64,000 bases of DNA, taken from Candidatus Yonathbacteria bacterium. Its GTDB lineage: Bacteria; Patescibacteriota; Minisyncoccia; Phycocordibacterales; UBA1550. Under the pieces are notes generated by a model. It had not been told where the DNA came from. It ran no database searches and saw only the letters and a program-made list of their open reading frames with translations. Positions 5,182 to 49,560 of the stretch are shown in pieces (position 1 is the stretch's first letter; each line of letters begins with the position of its first letter). The stretch covers positions 29,016-93,015 of the forward strand of contig JACRKU010000013.1 of assembly GCA_016215205.1 (NCBI GenBank), read 5' to 3'. Made by a program: the position numbers and the translations under genes.

Positions 5182-7210
5182 ACTTCACGAGTTCGTAGTC
5201 GATTGATTTGCGTTCTAGATCAACCGCTTTGACGCGGATTTTTAATTTATCTCCAAGAGTAAAACGCTCCCTAGTTTGTTTGCCGACGATGCGGTAATTC
5301 TCTTTTTCAAAAATATAGTAGTCATTGCCGAGGTCGCTGATGCGGATGAGACCTTCGCACTTTGTTTCATCTTCTTCCACAAAGACGCCCCATTCAGCAA
5401 CGCCGGAGATTGTGCCATTGAATTCTTTGCCTACTCGTTCGCTCATATATTCTGCTTGTTTGAATTTTATAGACGCGCGCTCGGCATCGGCGGCGAGTTT
5501 TTCCATTTCGGATGAATGCGCCGCAAGTGAGCGGTACTCGCTCATTTCTTCTTTTGTTACCTTCTCGTCCGCAAGGAAGTGCGCGAGAATGCGGTGCACC
5601 ATTACATCGGGGTAGCGGCGAATCGGCGAAGTAAAATGCGCGTAGTGCTCGTAAGCAAGGCCATAGTGCCCGATGTTTCGCGTCGAGTAGATTGCTTTTG
5701 CCATCGTGCGGATGGTCGCGGTGTTAAGCATTGTTTCTTCGGGCTTACCTTTTATTTGTTCAAGGAACTTATTTATGTCCGCGGACGAAACACGGCCTTC
5801 TTTAAGCGGGAGCTTGTATCCGAGCCCAGTGGCAAATTTTGCGAGTTCCGCGAGGCGCTCTGGTTTTGGTTCATCGTGCACGCGATACACAAAGAGGTCG
5901 CCCTCGTGCTCACCTTTGTTGCCCGTCTTCTCAAGTTTTTCTGAGACATATTCCGCAACTTTTTTATTTGCGAGAAGCATAAACATTTCCACGAGTTTGT
6001 TTGTATCCTGAAACTTTTTCGTGTACACGCGAATTGGCTTTTTGTTTGCATCGAGCTCAAAGCGCACCTCTTCGTGTTCAAATGATATAGCGCCTCCGGC
6101 TTTGTCTTGCACTACTAGTTTTTTTGCGATGATATTGAGGGTGTTGAGTTCGTCATAAAAAAGACCCGATCCGCTGTCTATTACTTCTTGCGCATTTTCA
6201 TATGTAAAACGTTTTGCCGAGTTGATGATTGCGCGCCCGAACCATGCGTTTCTCATCGTCACTTTTGAAGTTGGATTAGTTGCGGTGTCTGGCGCAAAAG
6301 TGAATACTGCCGAGAAAACAAGTTTGTCTTCTTTTTCGTTCAGACTGCAAAGGTCGTTAGAGAGGACCTCTGGGAACATTGGGATAACGCGGTCAACGAG
6401 GTAAATAGATGTCGCACGCTTGCGCGCCTCTTCGTCTATCAGAGCGTGCGGTTTTACATACGCCGATACATCCGCAATATGCACACCGATTTCAATGTCG
6501 CCATTTGGTAGTGTTTGAATAGAAATAGCGTCGTCAAAATCTTTTGCATCTGCGGGGTCGATGGTGAAAGTCGTTACCTTGCGGAAATCCCGACGCTTCT
6601 TTGCTTCTTCGGCAATGAATGCAGGCGCGGTTTTTTTGAGCGTGTCTGCTTCGCGGTGGATTTTCTCCGGGAGCTCCATTTGGAGACCTTTGTCGAGCAC
6701 AATCGCGCGGATTTCTGTTTCGTTGTCGCCGGCATCGCCAAGGACTTCGATAATTTCTGCAGTAGGGTTTTTCTTTGGGTCGGTCCAGTCTGAAAGACGA
6801 ACAAGGGCCTTCTTTCCGCGTAGTTTTTCACCATGTGGTGGGTTGGAGATGAGGAAATCCACATAGATGCGCGTATCTTGAGGAATGAGAAATGTTGCGC
6901 CGTTCTCTTCGTCAATTGTGCCAACAAAATTTACTTTAGCGCGCGCGAGAACCTCCACCACTTCGCCGGTTTGCTGTATGTCACCGATTTTGGCATTAAG
7001 CCTTACCTTTACCCTGTCGCGGGGAAGGGCGGTATTGAGAAAACCCGCCTCAATGCGAATGTCGTTTTCACGCGGACTGTCTTCGCCCACCGAAACAAAA
7101 CCAAAGCCCTTTGCAGTCGTCGTAATGACGCCCTCAACGAAGCTTCTGGTGAGAGTTTTTTCTTTGATCATATTGTTCCCAAGATAGCATAAAACTAACC
7201 CCTTGACCAT
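5180..7210 (-). CDS. rnr: Ribonuclease R / exoribonuclease II family (RNB domain, C-terminal S1)
   Basis: Cold-shock/OB N-terminus, central RNB catalytic region (…HIADVSAYV…, …GAISFE…), C-terminal S1-like (GTISGVAEWGVFVE); alternative start at 7171 (MIKEKTL). Confidence 0.85.
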   Translation of the reverse strand: MVKGLVLCYLGNNMIKEKTLTRSFVEGVITTTAKGFGFVSVGEDSPRENDIRIEAGFLNTALPRDRVKVRLNAKIGDIQQTGEVVEVLARAKVNFVGTIDEENGATFLIPQDTRIYVDFLISNPPHGEKLRGKKALVRLSDWTDPKKNPTAEIIEVLGDAGDNETEIRAIVLDKGLQMELPEKIHREADTLKKTAPAFIAEEAKKRRDFRKVTTFTIDPADAKDFDDAISIQTLPNGDIEIGVHIADVSAYVKPHALIDEEARKRATSIYLVDRVIPMFPEVLSNDLCSLNEKEDKLVFSAVFTFAPDTATNPTSKVTMRNAWFGRAIINSAKRFTYENAQEVIDSGSGLFYDELNTLNIIAKKLVVQDKAGGAISFEHEEVRFELDANKKPIRVYTKKFQDTNKLVEMFMLLANKKVAEYVSEKLEKTGNKGEHEGDLFVYRVHDEPKPERLAELAKFATGLGYKLPLKEGRVSSADINKFLEQIKGKPEETMLNTATIRTMAKAIYSTRNIGHYGLAYEHYAHFTSPIRRYPDVMVHRILAHFLADEKVTKEEMSEYRSLAAHSSEMEKLAADAERASIKFKQAEYMSERVGKEFNGTISGVAEWGVFVEEDETKCEGLIRISDLGNDYYIFEKENYRIVGKQTRERFTLGDKLKIRVKAVDLERKSIDYELVK

Positions 7211-38947: not shown

Positions 38948-39019
38948 GGCCCTATCGTCTATCGGTTAGGACATATCCTTCTCAAGGATAGAAGCGCGGT
39001 TCGATTCCGCGTAGGGTCA
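38948..39019 (+). tRNA. tRNA-Glu (anticodon CUC)
   Basis: Manual fold: acceptor GGCCCTA/TAGGGTC (one G.U), D-arm TCGTCTATCGGTTAGGACA (Glu-like), anticodon stem TATCC/GGATA loop TTCTCAA (U33, CUC, A37), T-arm CGCGG-TTCGATT-CCGCG, discriminator A. Confidence 0.85.
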
Positions 39020-39029
39020 CAAAGCGTTA

Positions 39030-39057
39030 AGAAAAAGTGAATTGCTTCACTTTTTTA
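39030..39057 (+). terminator. Terminator hairpin after tRNA-Glu
   Basis: aaaagtgaa-ttgc-ttcactttt followed by TTTAG. Confidence 0.5.
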
Positions 39058-39061
39058 GCTT

Positions 39062-39125
39062 TGTGAAGGCGCAGTGATGTTTTCTCTGCTCCCCGCAGAG
39101 AAAACCACGAGCCGGGGTCGCGAGC
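39062..39125 (+). repeat. Structured repeat element copy 1 (~64 nt)
   Basis: tgtgaaggcgcagtgatg + hairpin ttttctctgc-tcccc-gcagagaaaa + ccacgagccggggtcgcgagc; copy 2 at 39349 has same flanks with a different but self-complementary hairpin (compensatory). Confidence 0.5.
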
Positions 39126-39231
39126 ACTTAATAGATTGCGAGCAAAGCGAAGCAATATATTTAGTGACTTGTGACCACGCAGATTTTGCCGAACCTTGTT
39201 CGTCTGTAAAGTGTGGTAAAATACTTAGTAA

Positions 39232-39259
39232 CCCGTGAACGATTCCCCGTAGGGTCACA
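39232..39259 (+). repeat. Degenerate direct repeat of tRNA-Glu 3' end (T-loop to acceptor, att-like)
   Basis: cccgtgaacgattccccgtagggtcaca vs tRNA gcgcggttcgattccgcgtagggtcaca (22/28 identical), 240 bp downstream of the tRNA. Confidence 0.45.
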
Positions 39260-39348
39260 TTTAGAAACTTCAGCAGGTGTGAACGAAAAAATGACGCGCG
39301 CCGCAGGCGGAGCCCGATTTTGAGCTCACTTCCGACCAAGTTTCTGAA

Positions 39349-39413
39349 TGTGAAGGCGGAGCGATGTTTTTGTTTCCATCTGAAACAAAAACCGCGAACA
39401 GGATTGACCGAGC
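39349..39413 (+). repeat. Structured repeat element copy 2 (~65 nt)
   Basis: tgtgaaggcggagcgatg + hairpin tttttgtttc-catct-gaaacaaaaa + ccgcgaacaggattgaccgagc. Confidence 0.5.
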
Positions 39414-45610: not shown

Positions 45611-47082
45611 AAAAATTTTTGGGCGATGGCGCCGATTGTGCTCGTCTTGTCAAGATAGATGCGAATGTGTCTCTTTGCCATTGTTGTTTTTGTATAGTCG
45701 AGCCATTTACGCTTTGGGGTCGCGTTTTCTTTTGTCTCAATTTCAACAATATCACCGCTTTTGAGTTTTGTTTCAATGGAGACGAGCTTGCCGTTTATTT
45801 TTGCTCCTGACAAATGGTTGCCTATGTTGGAGTGAATCGCGTAAGCAAAATCTACAGGGCTTGATTCTTCGGGAAGGTCAATGACATCGCCCTTTGGAGT
45901 GAATACGAAAACGCGGTTTTTGAAGAAGTCCATATGCAGATGTTCCATAAATTCATCAGAACCCGCAACTTCCTTTTGCCACTTGGCAAGCTCCTTTACC
46001 CACGCGAGATTTTTATCAATATCCTTGGCGGATTCCCCTTTTTCTTTGTACGCGAGGTGTGAAGCGATACCGAACTGCGCCTCATTGTGCATTTCTTCGG
46101 TACGAATTTGTATTTCAATAATGCCGCCGTCCCCGCGGAAAATAGTGGTGTGGAGCGAGCGGTAGCCGTTTGTTTTTGGTACAGCGATGTAGTCTTTGAT
46201 GCGGCCGGAAACCGGGCGCCAGTGCTTGTGAATGATGCCGAGTGCCCGATAGCAGTCTTCCATAGACTTCACAATTACCCGCACGGCGAGAATGTCGAAT
46301 ACTTTGTCCGGGTCCATATCTTTGCGCGCGAGTTTTTTCCACAAACTAAAAAGATTTTTTACGCGGTAGTCCACGCGTGCGGTTTTGAGACCGTTTGCGG
46401 CAAGTTCTTTTTGAATAGAGCGATGAATTTTTTCGGCATACTTTTCATCGGCAATCCGCTTATTCTTGATGATGGCGAGGACTTGCCCGTGTTCTTTTGG
46501 ATAAGCATAAGGGAAGGCCGCATCTTCAAAGATTGCTTTCCATTTTCCCATACCAAAACGGTCGGCGAGGCGCGCGTGAATTTCAAGTGTTTCAAGCGCT
46601 ATACGCGCTCGTTTTGCTTCGGGCACATGTTCAAGAGTTTGTATATTGTGCAGACGGTCGGCGAGTTTAATTAAAAGCACGCGAATGTCGTGAGACATTG
46701 CAATAAAAAATTTACGCAAACTTTCCACGTGACGCTCCACGCCGTGATACTTGAGTTTGCCGAGTTTGGTGACACCTTCAACAAGCGTAAGCACTTCTTT
46801 GCCAAACTCTTGCTCTATTATTTTTGGCGAAACATTCGCATCTTCTATTGTGTCATGAAGGAATCCTGCCGCGATTGTCGGTGCATCGACATGAATCTGC
46901 GCAAGGTTTACGCCTACATGGGCGACATGGTTGAAGTATGGTTCGCCAGAGTAACGTTTTTGTCCCGCGTGCGCTTTCTCTGCAAACGCGTATGCTTTTT
47001 CGATAAGCTCGCGATCGCTCTTGGTCGGCGACTTCATAAGAGCAATAATTTCATCGACTGAAGGATATGACGGATGAGACAT
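45598..47082 (-). CDS. relA: (p)ppGpp synthetase/hydrolase RelA/SpoT homolog, short form (HD + synthetase + TGS)
   Basis: HD domain (HDTIED), synthetase domain (…GYRSLHTTIF…), TGS (VFVFTPKGDVIDLPE); 494 aa, lacks C-terminal regulatory domains of long RSH. Confidence 0.85.
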   Translation of the reverse strand: MSHPSYPSVDEIIALMKSPTKSDRELIEKAYAFAEKAHAGQKRYSGEPYFNHVAHVGVNLAQIHVDAPTIAAGFLHDTIEDANVSPKIIEQEFGKEVLTLVEGVTKLGKLKYHGVERHVESLRKFFIAMSHDIRVLLIKLADRLHNIQTLEHVPEAKRARIALETLEIHARLADRFGMGKWKAIFEDAAFPYAYPKEHGQVLAIIKNKRIADEKYAEKIHRSIQKELAANGLKTARVDYRVKNLFSLWKKLARKDMDPDKVFDILAVRVIVKSMEDCYRALGIIHKHWRPVSGRIKDYIAVPKTNGYRSLHTTIFRGDGGIIEIQIRTEEMHNEAQFGIASHLAYKEKGESAKDIDKNLAWVKELAKWQKEVAGSDEFMEHLHMDFFKNRVFVFTPKGDVIDLPEESSPVDFAYAIHSNIGNHLSGAKINGKLVSIETKLKSGDIVEIETKENATPKRKWLDYTKTTMAKRHIRIYLDKTSTIGAIAQKFFKKK

Positions 47083-47108
47083 CTTTTTATCTTATGGGAA
47101 TGTGTAAG

Positions 47109-47157
47109 GAAAAGCAAACACCCAGCCTGTCATCTGACAGGCTGGGTGTTTGCTTTT
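47109..47157. terminator. Long perfect hairpin terminator (23-bp stem)
   Basis: aaaagcaaacacccagcctgtca-tc-tgacaggctgggtgtttgctttt; between topA 3' region and relA start. Confidence 0.75.
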
Positions 47158-47169
47158 CCTTACTTCGTT

Positions 47170-47236
47170 TTCTCCAATTTGTGGGGTTTATGATTTGGGC
47201 ACAATTTGTTTGAGCAGCGTTCCGGAATTGTCTTCG
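47170..47236. repeat. Direct repeat copy 1 (~67 nt) matching the 3' end of topA
   Basis: ttatgatttgggcacaatttgtttgagcagcgttccggaattgtcttcg (49-nt identical core) repeated at 47402-47450 inside the topA C-terminal codons. Confidence 0.7.
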
Positions 47237-47373
47237 GTCACGAGTTACTAAGTCTGCTTGAGTGATTACACTCTGCGCGGACTAAGTACTCTCGACCCCG
47301 GCTCGGCTCCCTCGCAAGAGCCTCGGGATGCCTCCGCCCCACGAAGACGATTTGCGCATGCGGTGCATGCTTC

Positions 47374-49560
47374 CTATTTAGACTTCTCCAGTTTATGCGG
47401 ATTATGATTTGGGCACAATTTGTTTGAGCAGCGTTCCGGAATTGTCTTCGTGCCGAGCATCATAAGCGACCCGCACAAGTCGCATACTTTCCCCGTTGGT
47501 TTTGCTTTGATGGCATACTTGCAGTCAGGGTAGTTTGTACAACTATAGAAAATTCCGAAGCGACCTTTGCGTTCGGTCATAAAACCTTTTTTACAAACAG
47601 GGCATGGAACGCCCGTGTGGTTTAGGAGTGCGGCCGTCTCGTCTTTTTTAATAAATTTGCATTTTGGGTAACTTCCGCAGGCAATGAATCTTCCAAAGCG
47701 GCCGTCGCGTTCGACGAGATTTACCTTTCCGCATTTTGGACAAAGCTCGCCCGTGTCGCGCGGGCCGGCGAGCTCGGTGCCGTCTATCATGCGCGCGCCA
47801 ACACACTCGGGATAATTTTTACACGAGAGAAATTTCCCCGTGCGCGCGAGCTTTATAATCATCGGACCGTTGCATTTTGGACACTTGTGTTTTGGGTCTG
47901 CGTCGCCGAGCGTGGTGAGTTTGTCAATCTTGTCTTTTGATTTCACTTCTTTCAAAAATGGTCCGTAAAATTCTTTGAGTACTTTCACATACTCGCGCTC
48001 GCCGTTCGCAATATCATCAAGCTTGTCTTCCATTTCGGCAGTGAACACGTCACTGATGTAGTTTGCAAAATGAGCCTCTAGGAACGAACTCACCACATCG
48101 CCAGTGTCGGTGGGCTTGAGAGCTTTGCTATCTTTAATGACATAGCCGCGGTCAATTATCGTCTTGATGATAGACGCGTATGTGGAAGGGCGGCCGATAT
48201 CGCGTTTTTCGAGCTCTTTCACAAGCCCCGCTTCGGAGTAGCGTGGAGGCGGCTCAGTGAACTTTGCTTCGTCATCCAGAGAAAGAAGGATGAGCGATTC
48301 ACCTGAGGTCAACTTTGGCAGCTCCACATCCTCACCGCGCGAGTCTGTGTCTGCGGCGAGCCAACCTGGCATAATGACGCGAGAACCGGTAACGGAAAAA
48401 TTGGGTATTGAAAAATCACGGACATTGGCGAGAATGGTTGTGCGGGCGAGTTTTGCGTCAATCATCTGCGATGCGATGGTACGCGCCCAGATGAGTCGAT
48501 AAAGTTTTTTCTCTTCAGGGTTGATACCGAGGTCGTCCTTGCTCATGTCGGTGGGGCGAATAGCTTCGTGCGCCTCTTGCGCATTTTTGCTTTTAGTTTT
48601 AAACACGCGTGCTTCCGCGGATTGCGCGCCGTATCTCTTTGTTACTTCAGCGATGACGGCTTTTTGCGCGTCTAAAGAGAGTGTTGTGCTATCGGTACGC
48701 ATATATGTTATGAAACCCCTTTCGTAAAGTTTTTGAGCGATACCCATCGTGCGTGACGGCGCAAAGCCAAAACGCGAAGAGCCTGCTTGTTGAAGTGTGG
48801 ATGTAATGAACGGCGCTTTTGGCGCACGACTGACTTCGCTTTCTTTTACTTCTCGCACAACCCACTGATTTGCGCGCCCGATTTTTAAAATATTTTTTAC
48901 GATTGACTCATCACGCGGCTCCTCCGTACACGAAAGTAGAAGCTCAACACCTTTTCCCGTCTTTACTTTTGCGCTGAGCGACCAGTACGCCTCGGGAATA
49001 AACGCGCGGATTTCACGCTCGCGCTCCATAATGATGCGGAGGGCGGGGGACTGCACTCGCCCAGCCGAAAGACCGTAGCGTACTTTTTTCCAGATGAGCC
49101 CCGAGAGGTCATAGCCCACGAGCCGGTCGAGCACACGACGCGCCTCCTGAGCAACGCGCAAGTTTTCATCAATTAAGCGCGGATGCTTGAGAGCCTCTTC
49201 AATCGCACTTTTTGTAATTTCGTGAAAAACAATTCGCTTTGGTTTTTTCAAACCGCACGCTTCTTTGATGTGCCATGCTATAGCCTCGCCTTCGCGGTCA
49301 GGGTCGGTCGCAAGAAGCACTTCGCTCGCTTTTTTTGCAAGCACATCAATCTCGTGTACCACCTCGGCTTTACCTTTTGAAATTTCATAATGCGGAATAA
49401 AGCCGCCGGGGATGTCGATAGCTTTCTTATTGCTCTTTGGAAGGTCGCGAATATGCCCCACGCTCGCTTTTACGACATATTCGTTGCCCAAATATTTTCC
49501 AATCGTCTTCGCTTTTGACGGCGACTCGACAATGAGAAGTTTGTATTGTTTAACGGTCAT
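47374..49560 (-). CDS. topA: DNA topoisomerase I
   Basis: TOPRIM N-terminus, catalytic Tyr region, multiple C-terminal zinc ribbons (CPKCNGPM, CPKCGKVNL, CPVCKKGFM, CDLCGSLM). Confidence 0.95.
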   Translation of the reverse strand: MTVKQYKLLIVESPSKAKTIGKYLGNEYVVKASVGHIRDLPKSNKKAIDIPGGFIPHYEISKGKAEVVHEIDVLAKKASEVLLATDPDREGEAIAWHIKEACGLKKPKRIVFHEITKSAIEEALKHPRLIDENLRVAQEARRVLDRLVGYDLSGLIWKKVRYGLSAGRVQSPALRIIMEREREIRAFIPEAYWSLSAKVKTGKGVELLLSCTEEPRDESIVKNILKIGRANQWVVREVKESEVSRAPKAPFITSTLQQAGSSRFGFAPSRTMGIAQKLYERGFITYMRTDSTTLSLDAQKAVIAEVTKRYGAQSAEARVFKTKSKNAQEAHEAIRPTDMSKDDLGINPEEKKLYRLIWARTIASQMIDAKLARTTILANVRDFSIPNFSVTGSRVIMPGWLAADTDSRGEDVELPKLTSGESLILLSLDDEAKFTEPPPRYSEAGLVKELEKRDIGRPSTYASIIKTIIDRGYVIKDSKALKPTDTGDVVSSFLEAHFANYISDVFTAEMEDKLDDIANGEREYVKVLKEFYGPFLKEVKSKDKIDKLTTLGDADPKHKCPKCNGPMIIKLARTGKFLSCKNYPECVGARMIDGTELAGPRDTGELCPKCGKVNLVERDGRFGRFIACGSYPKCKFIKKDETAALLNHTGVPCPVCKKGFMTERKGRFGIFYSCTNYPDCKYAIKAKPTGKVCDLCGSLMMLGTKTIPERCSNKLCPNHNPHKLEKSK
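47384..47450. repeat. Direct repeat copy 2 (inside topA 3' coding end)
   Basis: Identical 49-nt core plus similar flanks; encodes ...MLGTKTIPERCSNKLCPNHN on minus strand. Confidence 0.7.

Follow-up and report, generated by a model that had tools for sequence, protein, structure and literature searches.

A candidate new family of guide-directed mobile RNA elements in tRNA genes and the topA 3′ end of Patescibacteria

The duplicated 3′ end of topA

The window analysed here is a 64,000-nt stretch of a Candidatus Yonathbacteria genome (GenBank assembly GCA_016215205.1, contig JACRKU010000013.1, positions 29,016 to 93,015 of the forward strand). It contains, at the 3′ end of the topoisomerase I gene topA, a duplicated gene end and a non-coding insert that are proposed to belong to a mobile RNA element. 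All coordinates follow window numbering; the elements at topA lie on the minus strand and those at a tRNA-Glu gene on the plus strand, while L-numbers (L001 and so on) are labels of the compared genome and metagenome loci. The organism is a member of the Patescibacteria (Paceibacteria; Yonathbacteria or Nomurabacteria-like) whose best TopA relatives are 85-91% identical, and an exact look-up of the window's TopA sequence showed that it was not on record.

The topA gene occupies 47374..49560 and encodes 728 aa. A repeat search of the window identified a 76-nt direct repeat (47161-47236 versus 47375-47450, 89% identity) with a fully identical 49-nt core (47188-47236 and 47402-47450), which a preliminary description of the locus had placed exactly, and the repeat is, as that description held, the 3′ end of topA. 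In particular, the in-gene copy A (47374..47449, 25 codons plus TAG) encodes the true TopA C-terminus (...KTIPERCSNKLCPNHNPHKLEKSK*) and is physically linked to the RNA described below. The displaced copy B (47160..47235) begins 138 nt beyond the topA stop codon, the distance first reported, and additionally reads in frame (KTIPERCSNKLCPNHKPHKLEKTK*) with its own TAA. The two copies have 8 differences, including C/T, G/A, T/A and G/C changes, and the identity between them drops sharply from 100% to about 70%. The 138-nt segment between the copies is GC-rich, as had been noticed (GC ~0.60 versus 0.42-0.50 in the flanks), and 0 matches to a 61-nt probe from the insert are expected in shuffles, which rules out chance.

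Origin of the two gene ends

For comparison, 80 species-representative genomes with a related TopA were fetched. In the closest relative found (L001), the hairpin arms that copy B overlaps (TAAGGAAAAGCAAA...TTTGCTTTTCCTTACACATTCCCATAA) are likewise met by the stop codon of topA, relA follows after 85 bp, and the alignment to the window lacks one 214-nt block (47236-47449), made up of copy A and the RNA. Copy B is therefore the resident end, and copy A with the 138-nt insert is the insertion; L001, with its 85-bp topA-relA spacer, shows the empty allele and the window the filled one. Sequence comparison identifies the 214 nt at 47236-47449 as inserted into topA behind the C of ...GGC AC|G AAG.... 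They comprise a replacement gene end, which takes 76 nt up to its stop codon, and a 138-nt non-coding element, and the resident topA end has been pushed downstream, where it is now a pseudo-end.

The same event recurs in other lineages. About 20 of the 80 genomes have 1-3 extra pseudo-ends downstream of topA at the same junction nucleotide, with a copy-to-copy spacing of 176-220 nt. Every pseudo-end begins at the K|TIPERC codon; the nucleotides there are GGY AC|N AAR in the gene and ...TGTGACC|N AAR in the displaced copy. All of the TopA family shares the conserved motif GTKTIPERCS.K.CPNHNPHKL; copy B of the window carries an N>K change at its otherwise universal Asn, and displaced ends are often decayed (for example, in L012, L051, L076, L021 and L058). 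Among the 12 closest GTDB loci (L003-L014), 5 contain a copy of the element at topA and 7 do not, and L001 also lacks one. The arrangement is thus patchy among the closest relatives.

Further, the differences between copies A and B are concentrated at silent positions. Across 17 loci, differences at codon positions 1:2:3 number 60:49:186, and the differing codons comprise 145 synonymous and 60 non-synonymous changes. By this codon pattern, the two copies evolved as working gene ends in separate lineages before their juxtaposition. The excess of third-position and synonymous changes therefore rejects duplication in place and shows that insert and gene end move horizontally together. Together with the empty site in L001 and the recurrent junction nucleotide, these differences bear out the earlier proposal of a site-specific insertion that rebuilt the end of topA. 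Tracts of exact identity, 31-76 nt long, start at the junction in the window, L009, L014, L037 and the stacked copies L034 C and L017 D, and they give way to synonymous divergence; co-conversion, template switching or unequal crossover of stacked insertions would each yield such tracts.

Several loci carry different material between topA and what follows it. At L035 (4600-4752), the same topA codon junction and a displaced end enclose a 145-nt AT-rich long hairpin, which keeps only the 'GTTTGCTGAGACGCGAAG' stretch of the family core. In the relative L002, a 216-aa open reading frame (ORF) without a Pfam match lies between topA and relA (6205-7086), a 12-nt tandem duplication (GTAAAGGCATAG) is found at the topA stop, and an IS200-type Y1 transposase gene is located nearby, between serS and dprA. 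Unrelated ORFs also lie between the topA end and further displaced-end remnants at L024 (3324-4343, 339 aa) and L004 (4898-5194, 98 aa). The larger inserts (L002, L024 and L004) were considered as autonomous versions of the element and rejected, being unrelated cargo with no mobility gene; the topA site may also gather other cargo.

A conserved four-helix RNA with an internal guide

When the inserts of different genomes are compared, conserved blocks alternate with hairpins of variable sequence. RNAalifold predicts four helices (P1-P4) from 22 full units, and the minimum free energy (MFE) fold of the window sequence alone contains the same four helices (z = -3.25). P1 is a long-range helix that joins the insertion site, CAC NAA RAC, to a GUYUUNGUG block located ~100 nt downstream. 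In the window, the insertion site and the 5′ strand of P1 span 47440..47452 (sense CAC|GAAGACAATT), with the upstream CAC at 47452-47450 and the junction after C47450; this pairing is found as an inverted repeat, by RNAalifold and in the MFE fold, and covaries at N, R and GGY. The guide block (47340..47352, sense AAUCGUCUUCGUG) pairs with 3 nt upstream and at least 9 nt downstream of the junction; the guide is contiguous, lies on one strand, and no split-guide loops were observed.

The remaining helices flank the guide. The P2 hairpin (47355..47371) has a variable sequence and a covarying stem, and it is dispensable (L047 lacks P2). P3 (47300..47338) consists of a 3-bp outer helix, an invariant GGA/GA internal loop and a variable hairpin. 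A GG linker and P4 (47236..47299) complete the element: P4 has a conserved GGUCG/UGACC base with a G.U pair, a bulged A and, in this lineage, a long stem, and it ends in ...GUGACC at 47236. The internal 'actaagt' repeats that had been noted in the insert are the two arms of this stem. The base of P4 includes the 3′ end of the element itself as pairing partner, and the positions concerned are invariant, hence without covariation support. Overall, the topology is only loosely hammerhead-like, with three helices around a junction and tandem G.A beside P3b, and the CUGANGA and GAAA motifs are absent.

Covariation statistics agree with the predicted helices. In the alignment of the 22 units, 93.5% of cells form standard pairs, compared to 73.3% after shuffling and 36-48% when partners are slid by 1-3 columns; there are 206 double-change cells, compared to 58.5 in shuffles, and 0 of 500 shuffles reach the observed values. 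Moreover, in 68 distinct metagenome sequences, 95.9% of cells are paired (64.3% shuffled, 34-46% slid) and 728 cells show double changes (204 in shuffles); again, 0 of 500 shuffles reach the observed values (3 of 500 for further pair types). Within P1, covariation extends to synonymous topA positions: the N of ACN pairs as AU in 9 cases, CG in 5 and GC in 3, and the R of AAR as AU in 13 and GC in 7. At L010 and L047, a GGT Gly codon stands opposite a guide ending in GUA. G.U pairs occupy near-invariant positions in 65 of the 68 sequences, and these would be A.C on the opposite strand; the topA sense strand is therefore the folded strand.

Copies at tRNA genes

No second copy of the insert was found in the window at the sequence level; in contrast, other copies, for which the preliminary description had proposed a search, are detectable by structure. 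A second intact family member lies directly 3′ of tRNA-Glu(ctc) (38948-39020), at 39032..39177 (cmsearch, 69.8 bits, E about 1e-12). Its guide, at 39057-39066, has as pairing partner the stretch 39017-39025 (TCACAAAGC), where the tRNA ends. Downstream, a remnant and displaced end occupy 39223..39259: what remains of an older copy of the T-loop type, namely its 3′ end (39223-39239, ACTTAGTAACCCGTGAA), abuts a displaced copy of the last 20 nt of tRNA-Glu (39240-39259), which is 95% identical to 39002-39021 and located 238 nt downstream of them. A third, decayed copy follows at 39336..39400, where only the P3 region scores; the reverse complement of its guide (TCACATTCAGAAACTT) matches the displaced tRNA end and trailer at 15 of 16 positions. 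The tRNA-Glu locus (38948-39400) thus contains three generations of insertion.

A covariance model built on the RNA part finds 40 copies in the window and 82 loci, many of them away from topA. Metagenome contigs were scanned with a target-independent core pattern, yielding at least 120 loci, in which the covariance model confirmed at least 142 copies. Beyond the topA-site copies, the family totals more than 150 copies in a size class of ~100-150 nt, and its targets are tRNA genes of ~20 specificities plus the topA site; a topA-type copy also occurs in the metagenome contigs (L116). The preliminary description had proposed a miniature or decayed element, and the first of these terms fits: the insert is intact and a member of a large structured-RNA family.

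The tRNA copies fall into a T-loop class, inserted after C56 (TTC|RAWYC...), and a 3′-end class, inserted at ...C|ACA.... In 109 of 126 copies, the base preceding the junction is C. The elements end in GACC, the displaced gene end follows, and every copy is encoded on its host gene's sense strand. The site-to-core distance is almost always 50-130 nt (~85 copies), leaving no room for an ORF. When ORFs of at least 120 aa from the at least 120 metagenome loci were clustered, only housekeeping families recurred nearby, each at no more than 10 loci. Tandem and nested arrangements are common, as at L141, L110, L033 and the tRNA-Glu locus of the window; at L141 and L110, the tandem units are identical and the target is restored at every boundary between them. 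The extent of the duplicated segment relative to the host terminator (50 cases: 19 reach into the trailer, 12 stop at the tRNA end and 19 are shorter) does not discriminate between models.

The guides differ according to their targets. Across the family, guides are 9-16 nt long, and their reverse complement matches the local site from 3 nt upstream to 9-13 nt downstream of the junction. On average, a guide matches its own site at 10.5 of 14 positions, compared to 8.6 for the sites of other elements and 8.3 for shuffled guides. Between topA-type and tRNA-type copies, backbone identity amounts to 75-92%, and at L034 two copies that are 92% identical carry unrelated guides. Because the topA site (GGCAC|GAAGAC) resembles the T-loop (GGTTC|GAATCC), these data suggest that topA was captured as an off-target site. 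In addition, ~14 T-loop guides place tandem G.A/A.G opposite positions +1 and +2, an arrangement regarded as typical of RNA helices.

Variant copies add further detail to the family. The guide variant ...GGAYGAGAA, in place of ...GGAYUCGAA, occurs at L034 (7845-7966), L092, L095, L122, L125, L126, L128, L142, L170, L179, L183, L187 and L202, with the G.A/A.G pairs right at the junction. At L141 (9573-9966, minus strand), three identical 134-nt units and a truncated fourth lie behind a tRNA-Arg, and the unit boundaries recreate the target C|ATAAG. At L094, L097, L114, L123, L171 and L196, 13-16 additional nt separate GACC-GA from the displaced tRNA end. They are mostly of the mini-hairpin type AAAGCGTACTCGCGG, which points to a further 3′ module or to a junction that has shifted. 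Copies at class II tRNAs (Leu or Ser-like) show a different geometry, with the truncated 5′ two-thirds of a tRNA upstream and a complete tRNA downstream (L025, 7775-7914; L037, 8350-8463, minus strand; L154, 3831-3970, minus strand). Finally, a T-loop-type copy at L146 (10156-10278) is found on a contig of 64% GC, beside a decayed tRNA with an encoded CCA; the genes of this contig do not look typical of the candidate phyla radiation (CPR) (a histidine kinase, a mechanosensitive channel and an HrpB-like helicase), and the family probably reaches beyond Patescibacteria.

Proposed mechanism of mobility

The preferred explanation, with a rough probability of 0.75 on the comparative data, is that the locus contains a guide-directed mobile RNA element of a new family. 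It appears to be undescribed: a protein-less mobile element with a conserved four-helix RNA and a retargetable guide. A literature search of incomplete coverage found no description of such an element or RNA family.

In the proposed mechanism, the element would be co-transcribed with its host gene as a 3′ extension, and the guide would specify the insertion site, and probably also an RNA processing site, by base pairing. The moving unit would be the gene end together with the RNA, with no splicing needed. Since such a unit carries its own gene end, the essential gene would not be inactivated and the insertion would be tolerated; insertions could also stack, because each one recreates the target. 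Through P1, the 5′ junction would come to lie 3 bp within a helix end, and through P4 the 3′ junction would lie at a second helix end, with both ends at the same three-way junction. This geometry suggests cleavage and joining at the RNA level at two C|N bonds, similar to reverse splicing. Tentatively, and at odds clearly below even within the probability given above, the element may be a self-mobile ribozyme in which the guide brings the target C|N to the element's own ...GACC, followed by self-catalysed excision and insertion. The other possibility is a host or trans-acting enzyme that is guided by the RNA. Homologous recombination of whole blocks surely contributes to the spread as well.

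Several points weigh against guide-directed mobility. Its support is wholly comparative, and no movement has been observed. The 68 metagenome sequences were not used in building the structural model, yet their alignment was fitted to it, and they were collected by a pattern that fixes the core motifs, whose conservation is partly by construction; the E-values of the covariance model, which come from a shortened calibration, are rough. At many topA loci, the guide is a closer match to copy A, the imported end, than to the resident copy B. The pairing of guide and recipient may not have been strict, or, alternatively, some of the spread is ordinary homologous recombination of a block of gene end plus RNA. 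Further, the rewriting of a 12-16 nt guide for each new target is left unexplained, and Rfam searches of the locus and 12 other loci found no known ribozyme core. No group II introns turned up in a published survey of 95 complete genomes of Patescibacteria (PMC13011429), which is taken here to weigh against a reverse-transcriptase route.

Alternative explanations

The element could instead be an RNA useful to its host, a 3′-end processing, stabilising or regulatory module that is not self-mobile and was spread by natural transformation and homologous recombination, with P1 merely structural. Such a module would fit an element that is always co-oriented and directly 3′ of its host gene, that keeps P1 complementarity with the in-gene copy, and that shows identity tracts beginning at the junction, as fits recombination; DprA and competence are typical of these bacteria. 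However, it does not account for the patchy occurrence among close relatives (5 of 12 loci, and none in L001), for the decayed, truncated and nested generations at one tRNA, or for identical tandem units. Moreover, the presence of one backbone with unrelated guides at unrelated genes of the same genome needs de novo insertion, beyond homologous recombination, and the folding of the tRNA would face competition from pairing with the T-arm. A host module is considered improbable. The flanking of foreign DNA by a direct repeat of the gene 3′ end, with the gene end rebuilt, also resembles the attL/attR scars of an integrase-driven element at topA and tRNA 3′ ends whose interior was nearly all deleted, and tRNA T-loops are classic integrase targets. 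Remnants of random deletion would not, however, yield more than 150 copies with one size class (~100-150 nt) and one covarying structure. Nor would an integrase origin lead one to expect, for each target, a complementary guide, or perfect tandem units, and there is no integrase in or near the elements, making scars of this kind very unlikely.

The two remaining alternatives concern the duplication itself. A local tandem duplication had been offered in the preliminary description; here it would have copied the topA end, after which the copies diverged and a small unrelated segment was inserted between them. Two head-to-tail 76-nt copies with a 49-nt identical core speak for it. It would also place the insert again after the second copy, where it does not recur, and it conflicts with the third-position differences, with the frame kept by the displaced copy, with the sharp switch in identity, and with the occurrence of the same junction and RNA in many lineages and at tRNA genes; little credence is left for it. 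An assembly artefact that duplicated the gene end, also raised at that stage, is favoured only by the general risk of metagenome assemblies. The copies are not identical, and the same architecture, with diverged copies, is found in ~20 independent assemblies and, across different projects, in over 100 metagenome contigs, so an artefact deserves next to no weight.

Searches for known elements and RNAs

Searches against known families returned no match to the element. Across the whole window, Rfam at its gathering threshold reported two tRNAs only; at permissive E-values (E<=10 at 47000-47600 and E<=1 at 12 other loci) there were only hairpin noise and neighbouring tRNAs, and the matches to mir-30 were rejected as spurious, arising from the hairpin of the palindrome. 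ARAGORN found no tRNA or tmRNA in the insert, and blastn found no match between the insert and annotated phages and plasmids. The core pattern had 4 matches in viral contigs, none with E<=0.001 in the covariance-model search and with guide regions unlike the family's targets; they are probably chance matches.

Known classes of mobile element and ribozyme were likewise considered and set aside. For an integrase-type element, the direct repeat of the target gene 3′ end is present at both borders, yet no ORF fits the 138-nt insert, and no recombinase lies among the window neighbours or recurs in the at least 120 metagenome loci. A group I intron is contradicted by the absence of a match to the Intron_gpI core (P3-P9; E<=10 at the locus, E<=1 at 12 other loci) and by its boundaries: both follow C, with no U.G pair or terminal G, the gene is complete unspliced, and the downstream copy decays. 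A group II intron has no Rfam match either, and the element is only ~140 nt long, with no ORF and without the GUGYG...AY boundaries. No covariance-model match was obtained for small self-cleaving ribozymes (hammerhead, hepatitis delta virus (HDV)-like, twister, twister-sister, hatchet, pistol and hairpin). When compared by hand, the helix order, the paired -3..-1 nucleotides and the missing core motifs did not fit HDV-like and hammerhead ribozymes or RNase P plus external guide sequence (EGS). An IS110 element would have a DEDD/RuvC-like recombinase gene beside the RNA, and none is there. A diversity-generating retroelement is discounted, as the differences are not adenine-specific and no reverse transcriptase is present among the window neighbours. 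IS200/IS605 derivatives, either a palindrome-associated transposable element (PATE) or an omega RNA or reRNA, are discounted by the lack of a TnpA/TnpB ORF in cis, by a guide that is internal and antisense, and by the absence of an IS605-orfB or HEARO match. Finally, a miniature inverted-repeat transposable element (MITE) does not fit the ends (GAAGAC... or GAWTCC... at the 5′ side, ...GTGACC at the 3′ side), which have no terminal inverted repeat, or a repeat that consists of 20-76 nt of gene end.

Comparison with known systems

Integrase islands and prophages that target tRNA genes and carry a replacement 3′ end in attP share much of this architecture. The T-loop or a conserved gene's 3′ end is targeted, the incoming DNA rebuilds the gene end, the displaced end forms a direct repeat, and tandem stacking is possible. 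In contrast, the element described here is ~100-150 nt long, lacks an integrase or other ORF, contains a covarying RNA with an internal guide, and also uses the protein-coding topA.

Self-splicing introns of groups I and II, with their internal guide or exon- and intron-binding sequence (EBS-IBS) pairings and their reverse splicing and homing, are similar in that an ORF-optional structured RNA pairs across the junction with a retargetable guide. Patescibacteria tRNA genes are rich in group I introns, and the paper that describes them deals with anticodon-loop position 35/36 (PMC13011429). Unlike these introns, the element is at most a quarter of their size, has other boundary rules and no Rfam intron match, and supplies a gene end rather than interrupting the gene. 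Its downstream 'exon' decays, and splicing is therefore neither needed nor selected.

In IS110/IS1111 elements, an element-encoded bridge RNA or seekRNA sets the target by base pairing (PMC11208160). As in IS110, the RNA would also pair with its own element end (here GGUC with GACC), and target and element end share a short nucleotide core. The differences are that no DEDD recombinase is found in cis or recurs, that there is one contiguous guide instead of two split-guide loops, that the element is ~10 times smaller, and that it rebuilds a gene end.

Two eukaryotic systems provide further parallels. R2 non-LTR retrotransposons have a 5′ HDV-like ribozyme, a conserved rRNA target, and a reverse transcriptase and endonuclease, and they inactivate the rDNA copy that they enter. 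Like R2, the element uses one conserved site of an essential gene, and co-transcription and RNA processing at the 5′ junction are proposed for it; by analogy, host-derived sequence on the element RNA may aid the 5′ join, with one junction precise and the other resolved by homology. Unlike R2, it has neither a protein nor an HDV-like fold, and it leaves the host gene intact. In fungal mitochondria, endonuclease ORFs enter the 3′ ends of atp6 and cox genes with a foreign C-terminal segment, for example in Allomyces atp6. These ORFs (compare PMC7315562) share an imported C-terminus fused in frame, a resident pseudo-end downstream and co-conversion tracts, whereas they are driven by a homing endonuclease and the element here is ORF-less with a guide RNA.

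If confirmed, this would be an undescribed kind of mobile element, one that enters tRNA genes and the topoisomerase I gene without harm because it brings a spare gene end. It bears on how the ultra-small genomes of Patescibacteria tolerate and spread selfish DNA and exchange gene ends horizontally, and it would explain pseudo gene ends and odd tRNA trailers in annotation. A further question, made directly testable by the modular guide, is whether site-specific insertion can be directed by RNA on its own or by RNA together with a host enzyme; such a guide could serve as a programmable tool. A self-mobile ribozyme, if true, would be the smallest known autonomous guide-directed mobile element and a candidate minimal programmable RNA tool.

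Surroundings of the topA locus

The neighbouring genes of the window (MraW, FtsI, Mur ligase, HAD hydrolase, ApbE, ParB, RelA/SpoT, DprA and SerRS) have housekeeping functions. Between the resident topA end and the RelA/SpoT gene lies a perfect, terminator-like palindrome (47104..47163, no strand), which forms the ancestral context of copy B and is overlapped by its TAA. Its arms are 29 nt long with a 2-nt loop in the window, compared to 33 nt and loopless in L001 (6206-6271); the outer arms are kept between the two genomes and the inner sequence is different, which is unusual for a simple terminator.

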